Source: Bixzunavirus tonenili (taxonomy: Duplodnaviria; Heunggongvirae; Uroviricota; Caudoviricetes). From it: a stretch of DNA of 64,000 nt. The notes under the pieces are model-generated. The model ran no database searches. It worked only from the letters and a program-made list of their open reading frames with translations, and had not been told where the DNA came from. The stretch is from the IMG/VR virus record IMGVR_UViG_2706796412_000001, positions 1 to 64,000 of that record; one strand, written 5' to 3'. Position numbers and translations under genes: made by a program. Positions 23,260-36,563 of the stretch are shown piece by piece (within the stretch, counting starts at the first letter, position 1; every line of letters begins with the position of its first letter).

Positions 23260-23564
23260 GCAAGCTGACGCCCACCCAGGAACTCATTCTGGAGGTGCTC
23301 GCCGCGCGCAGCCGTCTGGGCGAGCAGTTCTGGACCTTCCCGACCCGTACGGCACTCGTGCGGGCCGCCAGGAGCCTGGAGAACACCGGATTCGTCTGGT
23401 GTGACACCGCGCCGACGCCGCGCAGCTTTCGCGTCGGGCTTACCGAGCAAGGCCAGCTGGCCTGCATCGATCCCGGCTACACCCCACCTGTGGAGCGCAC
23501 CAGCACCGAGAGCGTCCGCAGGCGGATGCACGAGGCTGTCGATCGCGTCCTGGACGGCCTCTGA
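23256..23564 (+). CDS. winged-helix-like regulator (102 aa)
   Basis: GTGA overlap; LTPTQELILEVLAARS resembles MarR/PadR wHTH N-terminus. Confidence 0.4.
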   Translation: MSKLTPTQELILEVLAARSRLGEQFWTFPTRTALVRAARSLENTGFVWCDTAPTPRSFRVGLTEQGQLACIDPGYTPPVERTSTESVRRRMHEAVDRVLDGL

Positions 23565-23896
23565 TGGAGTTTGTCTTCTTCGACGAGTTGACCCCTCAAC
23601 AGCAGGAGGCGTGGCTGCAGGGGGACGCTCTGGACATGGCACACCGCTGGCTGCGGGGTCGGCGCCAGCGCGAGCTGCTGATCAAGATGTTCTACCACGA
23701 GAAGGTCTACGGCCCGCGTGGTTCGCGCTGGGGCTACAGCGCCGAGTCGCGCCGGATACTCGCCGCCCTGCTTCGGCACAGCCTGGTGATCAAGTGCGAC
23801 AGCGCGGTGCCGCCGGAGCGTCCGGGCAAGCAGCTGTGGCGTCTGAGCGACATGGGCCGACGGTGCGCCAAGATCATGATCGAAGAGAAGCTGTGA
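23564..23896 (+). CDS. hypothetical protein (110 aa)
   Basis: TGATG overlap. Confidence 0.4.
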   Translation: MEFVFFDELTPQQQEAWLQGDALDMAHRWLRGRRQRELLIKMFYHEKVYGPRGSRWGYSAESRRILAALLRHSLVIKCDSAVPPERPGKQLWRLSDMGRRCAKIMIEEKL

Positions 23897-23916
23897 CGCA
23901 GGACACATAACCCCAA

Positions 23917-23951
23917 GGAATGATTCGCCCTATAGCAAGGTTATAGTGGGT
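23917..23951 (+). promoter_or_regulatory. promoter-like motif GGAATGATTCGCCCTAT..GTTATAGTGGGT driving a long non-coding leader
   Basis: repeated motif, but next credible start codon is about 450 nt downstream (24404). Confidence 0.45.
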
Positions 23952-24403
23952 GTAGCACCGAACATCGACAACTCAAGAGAGCATCTGGACCACCGAGGCA
24001 CCGTGCAATTACCCCTGTGAAACATCCCCTGACGGCTAACGACCACGACCTCACCCCAGAGACCGGACCGAAAGGCCCCATCGCGATACACCCCAGCCAC
24101 GTGTGGCGGGGCCGGTGGGAACCAGCCCCAGAGAAGCCGGAGACGGGCGTGAGGCGACCCCTGAACGAAGGGATGCGGAGGGCGAAATCCGCCGCGAGAG
24201 AAGGTGAGGCCAAGAGCCATCGAGCGCGCCGACGGGCGCGGGAAGGATGGACGAGCGCCGCGTCAAACAGACAGGTCTAGTACCGATGGTAGCCGGGGAG
24301 TGCGCACGAACCGGGGAGACTAGGGAACGAAACCGGCTGGCCAGATGCTCCCTTGGGTTGTCGATGTCGGCACTCAACCGCCACCCACCGAAAGGAGGGC
24401 CGC
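23952..24403 (+). ncRNA. candidate structured ncRNA or long 5' leader (purine-rich, GC hairpins)
   Basis: about 450 nt without convincing CDS downstream of consensus promoter; multiple GC-rich stem-loops (GCGGAgggcgaaaTCCGC, GGCCCC..GGGGCC). Confidence 0.3.
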
Positions 24404-24637
24404 ATGGCCCACAATGATCTGGTCAAGCTCGCCAGCGAAGCCAACGAACGCGCGCTGTATCTGCGCGAGCAGATGGAGGCCTGGACCTACATGGCCCCGG
24501 CGGGCATCGTCGAGCTGCTGGCCGCTGTCGACGCTCTGACCGGCGCCGTGGTCGAGCTGGCCGCGACCGACGACGATGTCGCCGCCGAGCTTGAAGCGCT
24601 GCAGACCAAGTTCGATCGCCTGCGGACCTGTCGGTGA
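24404..24637 (+). CDS. hypothetical protein (77 aa)
   Basis: ATG after AAAGGAGGG RBS. Confidence 0.45.
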   Translation: MAHNDLVKLASEANERALYLREQMEAWTYMAPAGIVELLAAVDALTGAVVELAATDDDVAAELEALQTKFDRLRTCR

Positions 24638-24978
24638 GAGTCTTCTTCGGCGCCCGCGAGGTTACCGAGGAGGAGGCCAAGGCCCTCGAAGCCGAGGGCC
24701 GGGCCCACTTCTCCTACGTCGACGACGAGGGCAACTTCATCCTGGAGCGTGGGCCGGGCAACAAGTGGCTGGAGACCCAGCCGCCGCACGTGTTCGCCCT
24801 GCACATCTTCGGGCACACCGCCACCTGGGCCGGGATGGCCACGAAGTGGGCCACCACTTCCGCTGAAGGCGAAGACGCCGATGCCGTCGATGCCATGTTG
24901 ATGAGCGGCGTTGCCGCCGCCCTGGTCGTGCTCAACCGCAAGCTGGCCGTCGCCCACAAGAATCTGTCCCGGAGCTGA
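24634..24978 (+). CDS. hypothetical protein (114 aa)
   Basis: GTGA overlap. Confidence 0.4.
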   Translation: MRVFFGAREVTEEEAKALEAEGRAHFSYVDDEGNFILERGPGNKWLETQPPHVFALHIFGHTATWAGMATKWATTSAEGEDADAVDAMLMSGVAAALVVLNRKLAVAHKNLSRS

Positions 24979-35874: not shown

Positions 35875-35957
35875 GGAGGGTGAGCATCAGGTGATGCAGC
35901 GAGATTGCTAATCCCGTACGGTAACCACCCCGTGAGGTTCGAATCCTCCTCCCTCCG
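35875..35957 (+). tRNA. tRNA-Ser(GCU)-like, class II (hand-folded)
   Basis: acceptor GGAGGGT/TCCCTCC, D-stem GCAT/ATGC, anticodon loop TTGCTAA with imperfect stem, long variable arm, T-arm GAGG-TTCGAAT-CCTC, G73. Confidence 0.4.
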
Positions 35958-36065
35958 CGTAGTACATCTATGGAGGATGAAGCAGCCGCGTAGTGCGGCG
36001 ACCGGATTCGAAACCCGGGTAGCGCGTCATGGCGCTTGGGGAGCGTGCCCTCCTTCCTCCGCTTG

Positions 36066-36149
36066 GGAGAAGAAACCGTCAAGGCTGACGGGACCGCTTG
36101 GAAAGCGGCTCGTGGGTAACACCATGAGGATCGTGCCCTCTCTTCTCCG
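36066..36149 (+). ncRNA. aberrant tRNA-like cloverleaf (8-bp acceptor, 6-bp D-stem with 4-nt loop, GGA anticodon-like loop, long variable arm, non-canonical T-loop)
   Basis: GGAGAAGA/TCTTCTCC closing stem; hairpins CCGTCA-aggc-TGACGG, CCGCTT-ggaa-AAGCGG, GAGG-atcgtgc-CCTC stacked on acceptor; G discriminator. Confidence 0.3.
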
Positions 36150-36150
36150 C

Positions 36151-36225
36151 GCTCCCGTAGCCCAATTGGCAGGAGGCACCAGATTCAGGATCTGGGCAGT
36201 GTGAGTTCGAATCTCACCGGGAGTA
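36151..36225 (+). tRNA. tRNA with Leu anticodon CAG but class-I architecture (75 nt)
   Basis: acceptor GCTCCCG/CGGGAGT, U8A9, anticodon stem CCAGA/TCTGG loop TTCAGGA, 5-nt variable loop GCAGT, T-arm GTGAG-TTCGAAT-CTCAC, A73. Confidence 0.5.
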
Positions 36226-36345
36226 CGTGTGTGTTCCATGTGGCGGATGTCCCGACTGCGGGCCGGTGTACGCGTGCGAACGTTGCGTCAAGGCAGCGTT
36301 CGACCGGGTGCTGGTCCGCTGGGCCTCTGTCCTGGAACGCCTCGC

Positions 36346-36419
36346 GTCTCTGTAGGCAAACCGGAAAAGCCGCCATCTTGAGGGGGTGGTGCGTGCGGGT
36401 TCGACTCCCGCCAGAGACA
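36346..36419 (+). tRNA. tRNA with Leu anticodon GAG but class-I architecture (74 nt)
   Basis: acceptor GTCTCTG/CAGAGAC, D-stem GGC/GCC with 11-nt loop, anticodon stem CCATC/GGTGG loop TTGAGGG, variable TGCGT, T-arm GCGGG-TTCGACT-CCCGC, A73. Confidence 0.5.
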
Positions 36420-36420
36420 C

Positions 36421-36493
36421 GCCGTGGTAGGCCATCTGGCGAGCCGCCGAATTCAAGTTTCGGTGTTTGCGGGTTCGAATCCCGCCCACGGTA
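36421..36493 (+). tRNA. tRNA with Leu anticodon CAA but class-I architecture (73 nt)
   Basis: acceptor GCCGTGG/CCACGGT, perfect anticodon stem CCGAA/TTCGG loop TTCAAGT, variable TGTTT, T-arm GCGGG-TTCGAAT-CCCGC, A73. Confidence 0.5.
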
Positions 36494-36563
36494 CAACCTG
36501 TAGAAAACCTACCGACCTGTTCTAACCAGTAGGAGCAACACCTTCTATCTGGCAGGAGCAGGG

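Follow-up and report, generated by a model that had tools for sequence, protein, structure and literature searches.

The stretch of DNA analysed here, called the window throughout, is the first 64 kb of the genome of Mycobacterium phage Tonenili (NC_031080; Bixzunavirus, cluster C), and its coordinates are those of the genome. Between the end of gp075 (GenBank 23564-23896) and the start of gp077 (24404-24637) it holds a gap that an earlier inspection of the letters alone, below the sequence-only reading, had singled out as a candidate for a structured noncoding RNA, a replication origin or packaging site, or a long regulatory leader. The gap almost certainly encodes a structured RNA and no protein gene; the RNA is predicted to occupy positions 23958..24370 of the + strand (~413 nucleotides (nt)), bounded by the outer end of its terminal helix P1, with the core recognised by a covariance model (CM) at 23979-24350.

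The gap opens with a promoter-like motif, GGAATGA-N17-TTATAGT (23917..23947, + strand), made up of a -35-like element (23917-23923) and a -10-like TATAGT (23942-23947), which would be expected to act as a promoter and to place the transcription start near 23953-23955. It matches exactly a bipartite motif, GGAATGA-N17-TTATANT, of which the window holds 12 copies (3609, 12815, 13714, 14119, 16413, 16930, 17919, 21290, 23917, 55249, 56575 and 61571), all 12 on the + strand and with only 0.06 expected; together they probably form the early promoter set of the phage. A conserved CACACTCACCCAGGAG leader often lies 3′ of the motif copies, with an ATG ~40 nt downstream. The -35 part of the motif is not sigma-70-like, and Myrna-type phages have TTGCAA-N17-TACAAT at the homologous place. 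The sequence-only reading had described a promoter copy followed by a gap of some 450 nt before the next ribosome-binding site and ATG, and this is indeed the arrangement, the distance from the motif to the start codon at 24404 being ~455 nt and at the other copies only ~40 nt. It had also called the region purine-rich, in agreement with an AT skew of 0.37-0.42 across 23800-24400, the highest in the 8 kb profiled; the GC skew there is slightly positive. The only sizeable + strand open reading frame (ORF) in the gap, 24017-24280, has a GTG start and 87 codons, lies within the RNA and is annotated as coding sequence gp076, a hypothetical protein of 87 aa assigned to PHROG 5256. The Shine-Dalgarno sequence (SD; GAAAGGAGGG) and ATG of gp077 (24390..24406, + strand) lie outside the RNA, 34 nt beyond P1, and bear on the question of leader or gene discussed below.

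Conservation and fold of the RNA

First, the interval is conserved beyond its surroundings. A 1301-nt query including the flanks is 80-90% identical to ~200 cluster C1 phages, whereas the 521-nt interval alone reaches 95-99%. Compared base by base, Tonenili and Bxz1 differ at 6 positions over 23949-24368 (~98.6% identity), whereas the genes on either side of this block are 60-87% identical per 60-nt block; phages being mosaic, this pair alone is no proof of constraint. A diverged copy is present in Myrna, Phabba and ScoobyDoobyDoo (Myrnavirus, cluster C2), within a 540-700 nt interval without annotated gene, where the core can still be aligned with that of Tonenili and the flanks have no similarity to it. 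The same holds across the family as a whole, which is kept from the C1 and C2 mycobacteriophages to many uncultured phages while the flanks are not.

Next, the conservation follows a base-paired fold. The 5′ end (CATCGACAAC..AGAGCATCTGG) is by eye complementary to the 3′ end (CCAGATGCTC..GTTGTCGATG), and the ends of the Myrna copy differ yet are again complementary; an independent repeat search reported an inverted repeat of 34 nt, I1, pairing 23962-23995 with 24334-24367 at 85% complementarity. With six sequences as input, RNAalifold proposed 74 pairs, of which 35 carry compensatory double changes. A structure of 44 pairs in eight helices, derived by hand from compact members of the family, was scored on a plain MAFFT alignment of 14 sequences, where 90.8% of cells are paired compared with 34-44% in controls with the 3′ partners displaced by 1-3 columns; double changes occur at 36 of the 44 pairs, and none of 500 shuffles matched the observed values. 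When 83 sequences are aligned with the CM, a fit that leans towards the model structure, though with a very large margin, 91.6% of cells are paired against 31-47% in the slid controls, double changes are seen at 41 of the 44 pairs and the covariation score is 0.68 against 0.05-0.08. Annotated pairs also rank highest in an unbiased mutual-information scan, which revealed an additional pseudoknot. U-G pairs are abundant (42 and 43 sequences at two pairs of P3), and the structure therefore belongs to the + strand transcript.

Finally, the model finds the Tonenili element from sequences of other phages. The model, R1, was built from the 14 sequences, none from a mycobacteriophage and Tonenili excluded, and gave on the window a single match at 23979-24350 (107.9 bits, E=4e-24), with no further match in the remaining 97 kb of the Tonenili genome and none in 725 kb of unrelated viral contigs. 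The proposal of a structured noncoding RNA under its own promoter is thereby strongly supported by conservation and covariation among 83 homologues, the comparison across related phages that the sequence-only reading had asked for.

The nucleotide conservation could instead reflect a protein, the Arg/Glu-rich 87-aa product of gp076, but this is highly improbable. The 87-codon ORF with its GTG start is present and annotated in Tonenili, I3, JustHall and many other C1 records, which form PHROG 5256; however, no SD precedes it, a stop codon interrupts its frame after 7-81 codons (median 23) in 81 members, and the start codon is found only in C1 phages. In Phabba, Myrna and ScoobyDoobyDoo the frame stays open for only 8, 20 and 23 codons, respectively, and neither these phages nor the member L020 have a start there. 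Nappy carries a 1-nt insertion inside the ORF, in the P5 extension described below, and the indels that separate lineages are not multiples of three. Two of the three differences between Tonenili and Bxz1 within the ORF are non-synonymous, at a locus where the neighbouring genes differ at ~20% of sites, and the conserved block extends past the ORF by 60 nt on its 5′ side and 90 nt on its 3′ side, tracking the helices. The homologues of gp076 thus share neither the frame, nor the start, nor the three-nucleotide spacing of indels that mark a protein gene. As far as the sequences tell, gp076 is most likely no gene and merely an open frame within the RNA, and PHROG 5256 is a mere collection of such annotated ORFs; the doubt earlier cast on 24017-24280 was justified, although GenBank nonetheless annotates gp076.

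In the predicted fold, the terminal helix P1 of ~30 base pairs (bp) closes the element, and seven more helices and the pseudoknot lie inside. Helix coordinates in Tonenili were assigned manually, with the CM alignment and the compact members as guides, and the latter also set the register of the 3′ strands of P2 and P3, which the CM had misplaced across an insert specific to cluster C. P1 pairs 23958..23988 with 24341..24370 and is supported both by the inverted repeat I1 and by covariation, with double compensatory changes at 10 of 10 modelled pairs and 93.5% of cells paired in the 83 sequences; in other members it is 20-40 bp long and of unrelated sequence. P2 (23991-23994 with 24203-24206, 3′ strand GGUG) and P3 (23999-24005 with 24193-24200, 3′ strand within GCGAGAG) follow, their 5′ strands separated by a conserved GAGG. 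Both covary, as at P3 column 23/432, which is A-U in 40 sequences and G-C in 24. P4 is formed by CAUCCC (24023-24028) and GGGAUG (24170-24175), with double changes at 7 of 7 modelled pairs and 95.1% of cells paired, and opens into an internal loop whose 5′ side, CUGACGGCUAACGACCACGA (24029..24048), is near-identical across the family and whose 3′ side, CGACCCCUGAACGAA (24155..24169), follows the consensus CGAYCCCURAAYGAA in 81 of 83 aligned members. Beyond the loop stands P5 (24049..24154 as a whole), whose basal pairs, 24049-24054 with 24149-24154, covary. Its 94-nt extension (24055-24148), which holds GGACCGAAAGGCC and GGCCCC..CACGUG..GGGGCC, is lineage-specific, and it is considered variable because the two loop strands lie as little as 36 nt or as much as 223 nt apart, depending on the member.

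The block 24170..24206 also contains the hairpin P6, GCGGA-GGGCGAAA-UCCGC (24175-24192), in which the C24176U change of Bxz1 turns a G-C into a G-U pair. The pseudoknot detected by mutual information joins GGG in the P6 loop (24180-24182) to CCC at 24013-24015 (alignment columns 349-351 and 43-45); its middle pair, 44/350, is C-G in 43 sequences, U-A in 11 and G-C in 9, and the equivalent in Myrna-type phages is CUC/GAG. An insert at 24207..24262 with the hairpin GCGCGCC-GACG-GGCGCGG separates P2 from the 3′ domain in Tonenili, Bxz1, Myrna, Phabba and ScoobyDoobyDoo and is missing from the compact members, the full element measuring from ~242 to 406 nt across the family. The 3′ domain itself (24263..24340) consists of CAAAC, the helix P7 (24268-24270 with 24337-24339), a purine-rich internal loop, GAUGGUAG / GGAGACUA, and P8 (24293-24296 with 24311-24314), with covariation in P7, P7b and P8. 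The apical loop of P8 (24297-24310, GGAGUGCGCACGAA) includes a self-complementary sequence, GUGCGCAC (24300..24307), which is a proposed site of symmetric kissing or dimerisation.

Several elements picked out in the sequence-only reading thus find their place in the fold. Its GCGGA-GGGCGAAA-TCCGC stem is P6, its CCGGGGAG direct repeat (24293-24300 and 24311-24318) corresponds to the strands of P8 plus flanks, and the GGCCCC..GGGGCC stem around CACGTG is real and belongs to the P5 extension. What that reading could not anticipate is that the element belongs to a large family, that a terminal helix of ~30 bp encloses it as a whole, and that the direct repeat and several stem-loops are parts of one architecture. 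A resemblance by eye to RNase P, 6S and signal recognition particle RNAs or to a sarcin-ricin-loop mimic (UAGUAC..GAGAG..ACCGG) was discarded as conflicting with the pairing supported by covariation, in which GAGAGUAA / GGAGGGUA form the internal loop between P7b and P8.

The annotation of the locus varies among cluster C phages. I3 and JustHall have the 264-nt ORF and a 351-nt downstream gene beginning directly after it, Bxz1 and Nappy only a single 390-nt downstream gene, and ScottMcG nothing; the gp076 ORF is unannotated in Myrna, Phabba, ScoobyDoobyDoo, Bxz1 and ScottMcG. The downstream gene is annotated in many C1 phages with an N-terminal extension of 40-50 codons overlapping the 3′ half of the RNA (Bxz1, L005 20356-20745; I3, L002 2283-2633; JustHall, L003 2283-2633; Nappy, L189 657-1046; the Tonenili counterpart is 24353-24403). 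A 2-nt indel at 24376 separates Tonenili from all other C1 phages and breaks the frame of the long extension, and because the extension is out of frame in Tonenili, the short form of the gene, with the ATG at 24404 and a strong SD, is probably correct everywhere. Further downstream, gp078 (24634-24978) is missing from Bxz1, where the pairwise alignment has a clean deletion of ~290 nt (window 24661-24951), an example of mosaic gene content around the conserved RNA. ScoobyDoobyDoo alone has a 65-nt GC-rich hairpin, GCGAGGGCC...GGCCCTCGC (L007 ~1430-1495), as an insert that separates the promoter from the start of the RNA.

The internal loop and the P8 apex

Between P4 and P5 lies an asymmetric internal loop of 20 + 15 nt that hardly varies among members (CUGACGGYUAACGAYCACG / CGAYCCCUGAAYGAA). 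Its 5′ strand is the same in C1, C2 and uncultured members except for one Y position, an invariance that is in part a matter of ascertainment, members having been found with loop-derived patterns. A scan of IMG/VR with the opposite strand, GCGAYCCCTGAAYGAAGG, returned 23 loci, 16 known and 7 new, all seven of the latter positive with the CM; the 5′ strand shows at most 1-2 base differences at every one of the 23 loci (CUGACGGYUAACGA(C/U)CACG(A/U/C)). Two metagenomic phage contigs, L101 and L113, hold two RNA copies in tandem. Adjoining the copies at L101:4925-5158(-) and L113:2412-2644(-), the second copies (L101:5197-5422(-) and L113:2144-2370(-)) keep all the helices but differ in the loop (CUACGGCACGCUCUC / UGAMCCGUGUUUAUGAA). 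These paralogues, found by the CM, run counter to strict loop invariance, and because they carry a different loop, the loop suggests itself as a specificity module. A pattern for the variant, "type 2" loop gave 91 loci in IMG/VR, all of them chance matches with none confirmed by the CM, and serves as a specificity control only. Near the 3′ end of actinobacterial 16S rRNA (h44/h45), the sequences UAGCCGU, GUCGU and GGGAUCG would offer colinear complements to three segments of the loop (ACGGYUA, ACGAC and CGAUCCC), each match taken singly being at chance level.

The apex of P8 follows a different rule, in that its self-complementarity is kept and its sequence is not. A perfect palindrome of at least 8 nt is found there in 60 of 75 members compared with ~11% of shuffled loops, with the cores GGCC (23), UGCA (23), GCGC (21) and, once, CCGG; the near-identical contigs L185 and L187 differ as GUGGCCAC and GUCCGGAC, and the independent repeat search also reports the palindrome, as I2. 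The self-complementarity thus appears selected and therefore points to pairing between two copies, as the central bases of the loop cannot pair within one molecule. On these patterns, self-association through P8 is slightly favoured, and the switching cores suggest, by analogy, a symmetric RNA-RNA dimerisation as in OLE and GOLLD. Loop tetranucleotides of OLE L9.3 and GOLLD L21a switch among GGCC, GAUC and AGCU and form symmetric intermolecular kissing loops in homo-oligomers (PMC12286853), and the palindrome-switch argument backed the assignment of such loops in the cryo-electron microscopy (cryo-EM) structures of both RNAs (PMC12286853, section 8). The loop studied here displays the same signature, which denotes a shared way of working and not family membership. 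Changing the P8 apex from GUGCGCAC to GUGCGGAC would break the palindrome, and GUCCGGAC would restore it. A second palindromic site at the apex of P5 (CACGUG in Tonenili) was considered and dropped, the P5 loops being variable and a palindrome of even 4 nt occurring in only 11 of 35.

Range of the family and comparison with known RNAs

The 18-mer GACGGNTAACGACCACGA occurs at 32 loci in IMG/VR, 29 of which are true homologues by nhmmer or the CM and three are chance matches in coding DNA; several of the members lie on contigs of 126-167 kb and others on contigs of 27-76 kb. JGI and other metagenomes contributed at least 86 homologues among the 120 loci listed, from soil, freshwater, sediment and marine (TARA) samples. 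BLASTN of 50,697 cultured phage records with a divergent member gave 204 records, all of cluster C mycobacteriophages. A set of 185,579 bacterial and archaeal genomes, one per species, yielded 21 pattern matches and a single homologue, L049 (DATKWD010000002.1, 940-1171), on a 126-kb contig of an Acidimicrobiales metagenome-assembled genome, its element having the length and CM score of the one on the IMG/VR contig L008. L049 is either a phage contig binned into that genome or a hint that Acidimicrobiales host the phage.

No Rfam family accounts for the element. Rfam 15 (4227 CMs, among them those for tmRNA, RNase P, 6S, SRP, YrlA, ROOL, GOLLD, OLE, raiA and riboswitches) at gathering score matched on the window only three tRNAs at 36.1-36.5 kb; on the region itself, with E up to 10, the best match scored 14.2 bits against a gathering score of 58.6, and nothing was matched on the element at 32 loci with other members. 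The remark that signatures of RNase P, tmRNA and 6S RNA are missing accordingly holds for the Rfam models as well. An open-access literature search by sequence strings and keywords found no description of the family, which is likely to be new, as judged from Rfam 15 and the open-access literature, and is best filed beside ROOL and GOLLD as a large structured phage RNA outside any known family.

With ROOL, GOLLD and OLE the element shares a phage-encoded, highly structured RNA rich in GNRA-type loops and pseudoknots, with no known protein partner or function, as well as the manner of discovery, by covariation in genomes and metagenomes. The switching palindromic loop is a further likeness to OLE and GOLLD, multimerisation of the Tonenili-type RNA being suggested by its sequence. 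However, there is no sequence or structure match to the Rfam models of the three, and the Tonenili-type RNA is smaller (~240-410 nt vs ~580 and >800). Unlike them, it is built of one long closing helix and two domains, is not linked to tRNA islands (the tRNA array of Tonenili is >70 kb away) and belongs to phages of GC-rich hosts including Actinobacteria. The 6S and Ms1 RNAs are likewise stable RNAs with a long irregular terminal helix and a large conserved internal loop between two helices, here P4 and P5, and by analogy the phage RNA might plausibly sequester a protein; it nevertheless has no 6S-type match in Rfam, is a branched two-domain fold with a pseudoknot and not a rod, and is phage-specific, not a feature of host genomes (185,579 species genomes).

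Two further RNAs deserve comparison. YrlA and other Y RNAs have 5′ and 3′ ends that form a long stem, and YrlA is a noncoding RNA of the same cluster C phages; in Ro60-encoding mycobacteriophages it adjoins the Ro60 gene and has a tRNA-like domain (PMC4201824). Ro60 of Tonenili, in contrast, is located at 134086-135744, 110 kb from the RNA, and the region has no T-arm or D-arm, no tRNA-like element by ARAGORN and no match to YrlA in Rfam. Ro60 is followed in Tonenili by an unannotated gap of 350 nt, which is probably YrlA. The put antitermination RNA of HK022 is also structured, lies directly 3′ of an early promoter and heads a same-strand series of genes, but put is ~70 nt with two hairpins, compared with 240-410 nt and a closing helix of 20-40 bp here, and some Tonenili-type RNAs have a terminator or second promoter behind them or occur as tandem copies.

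Free RNA, leader and other explanations

Taken as a whole, the locus is probably best explained as the gene of a ~413-nt structured noncoding RNA that belongs to a phage-specific family and would be free, trans-acting and self-associating. The copy of the repeated promoter motif at 23917-23947 would drive its transcription early in infection; a cut at the base of P1, whose duplex is the kind of substrate that RNase III takes, would then release it from the gp077 message as a stable, trans-acting molecule. Its invariant internal loop would dock a partner conserved across hosts, maybe a component of translation or RNA metabolism, whether protein or RNA, and the palindromic P8 loop would join two copies into a symmetric homodimer or a higher assembly. 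Action in trans is, on balance, expected. An extension of this scheme, in which the self-associating RNAs are a class forming a symmetric RNA-only particle that displays its loops to a universally conserved host component (e.g., the ribosome or an RNA-processing enzyme) for early capture or re-programming, is tentative and rather doubtful; within it, the L101 and L113 paralogues with a different loop would be modules for a different target.

The strongest competitor is a cis-acting 5′ leader of the downstream operon, serving processive antitermination of the HK022 put or EAR type or controlling the stability or translation of the next gene, a reading that is live but weaker and, in our view, fairly improbable. 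The element sits directly 3′ of the promoter-like motif, all genes of the region are co-directional, and in Tonenili the 34 nt that separate P1 from the SD and ATG of gp077 contain no terminator. On the other hand, the downstream genes are unrelated between lineages, and an all-against-all BLASTP of the flanking ORFs found no protein family common to them; the element is therefore not tied to a particular gene. Only one of the 12 promoter copies in the window carries it. A sigma-70-like promoter is present within 120 nt upstream in 24 of 79 members (30%) compared with 4% of control windows, an intrinsic terminator follows P1 at a distance of ~20 nt in L038 and L087, and in Myrna the next gene is ~300 nt away and preceded by a second promoter. 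A P1 of 20-40 bp also seems too stable to switch, the SD of gp077 lies outside the structure and is unsequestered, and with no shared downstream family these are not the properties of a riboswitch or gene-specific leader. A self-complementary loop and tandem paralogues with different loops would likewise be hard to explain. The leader proposed in the sequence-only reading thus retains the shortage of terminators in its favour and loses ground to the unrelated downstream genes, some of them behind a terminator or second promoter; a free RNA released at the long P1 duplex is favoured.

Several points nonetheless weigh against a free trans-acting RNA of a new family, besides the leaning of the fitted alignment and the ascertainment and exceptions of the loop noted above. 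A canonical terminator is missing in 77 of 79 members, which fits a leader as well, and an SD and start codon follow within 90 nt in 25 of 79, Tonenili included. The ends of the transcript, its stability and its processing at P1 are inferred, a literature search having found no RNA-seq studies of cluster C phages. Novelty is measured against Rfam 15 and open-access literature only, and the palindromic 8-mer of P8 could alternatively be a 2-bp stem with a 4-nt loop that is self-complementary by chance.

The element might also be a tmRNA-related module, an mRNA-like domain with pseudoknots that lacks the tRNA-like domain and works in trans-translation with a separate tRNA-like piece, although there is little to recommend this. 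The loop reads GCU AAC GAC CAC GAC (A-N-D-H-D), which we take to resemble the start of proteobacterial tmRNA tags; a hairpin follows the loop as does helix 5 in tmRNA, the long closing helix may be compared with tmRNA P2, and three uncultured contigs of two lineages each have a tmRNA gene on the strand of the RNA, 0.4-1.2 kb downstream of it (L014:10219-10301(-), L029:284-609(-) and L086:1047-1394(-)). However, neither ARAGORN on the window nor the two Rfam tmRNA models match the element, there is no T-arm or acceptor stem and no free ends to pair with an acceptor piece, and the supposed tag frame has no conserved length, stop codon or C-terminus, ending after 7-81 codons. The tmRNA of Tonenili itself is at 101744-102177 inside the tRNA array, 77 kb away, and a nearby tmRNA is found in only two independent lineages of ~70; ARAGORN on ~80 loci placed a tRNA or tmRNA gene nearby only in L014, L025, L029 and L086. 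In L014 the end-to-end alignment to the Rfam tmRNA model spans a mere 83 nt, which corresponds to a tRNA-like domain without the mRNA-like part, and the tags of L029 and L086 end in PAFAPSFA.

An element acting in DNA, whether replication origin, packaging site or protein-binding array, as the sequence-only reading had also considered, would suit a long noncoding interval with inverted repeats and palindromes but is the least credible of the explanations, there being no iteron-like arrays (only 2-3-copy repeats of 8-16 nt vs several of 17-22 nt expected), no GC-skew switch or cumulative skew extremum at a GC content of 0.63-0.67 throughout, helices maintained by G-U pairs that fix the + strand and whose counterparts on the opposite strand, or in a cruciform, would be A-C mismatches, an orientation always that of the flanking genes and often with a promoter upstream, and a genome annotated as circularly permuted with its terminase gene 128 kb away.

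As a structured RNA gene, the locus has consequences for well-studied genomes. The cluster C mycobacteriophages, with Bxz1, I3, Myrna and ~200 sequenced relatives, are among the best-studied actinobacteriophages, yet the locus is annotated inconsistently, and reading it as an RNA gene corrects several hundred GenBank annotations as well as PHROG 5256. A family widespread in soil, freshwater, marine and sediment samples would join the few large structured RNAs known from phages, ROOL and GOLLD among them, here in a genetically tractable system, M. smegmatis with phage engineering by BRED/CRISPY-BRED. The compact members of ~240 nt, with a fold supported by covariation, a nearly invariant 35-nt loop and a predicted kissing loop, are attractive targets for cryo-EM and pull-down experiments, and binding to a conserved host machine, should it occur, would amount to a new route of phage takeover.

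Elsewhere in its genome Tonenili encodes ~30 tRNAs, a tmRNA, a peptidyl-tRNA hydrolase, a release factor with an RF-1 domain, Ro60 with its adjoining gap, a polynucleotide kinase and an RNA ligase (95.7-102.4 kb, 122711-123067 and 134086-136093; L281, L282). The phage thus invests heavily in translation and RNA repair, and the RNA may have its functional setting there. Within the window, ARAGORN finds four tRNA genes at 35875-36494 (Ser-gct, Leu-cag, Leu-gag and Leu-caa), three of which are recovered at the Rfam gathering score; the first homologous tRNA of the array is annotated as a pseudogene in Bxz1.

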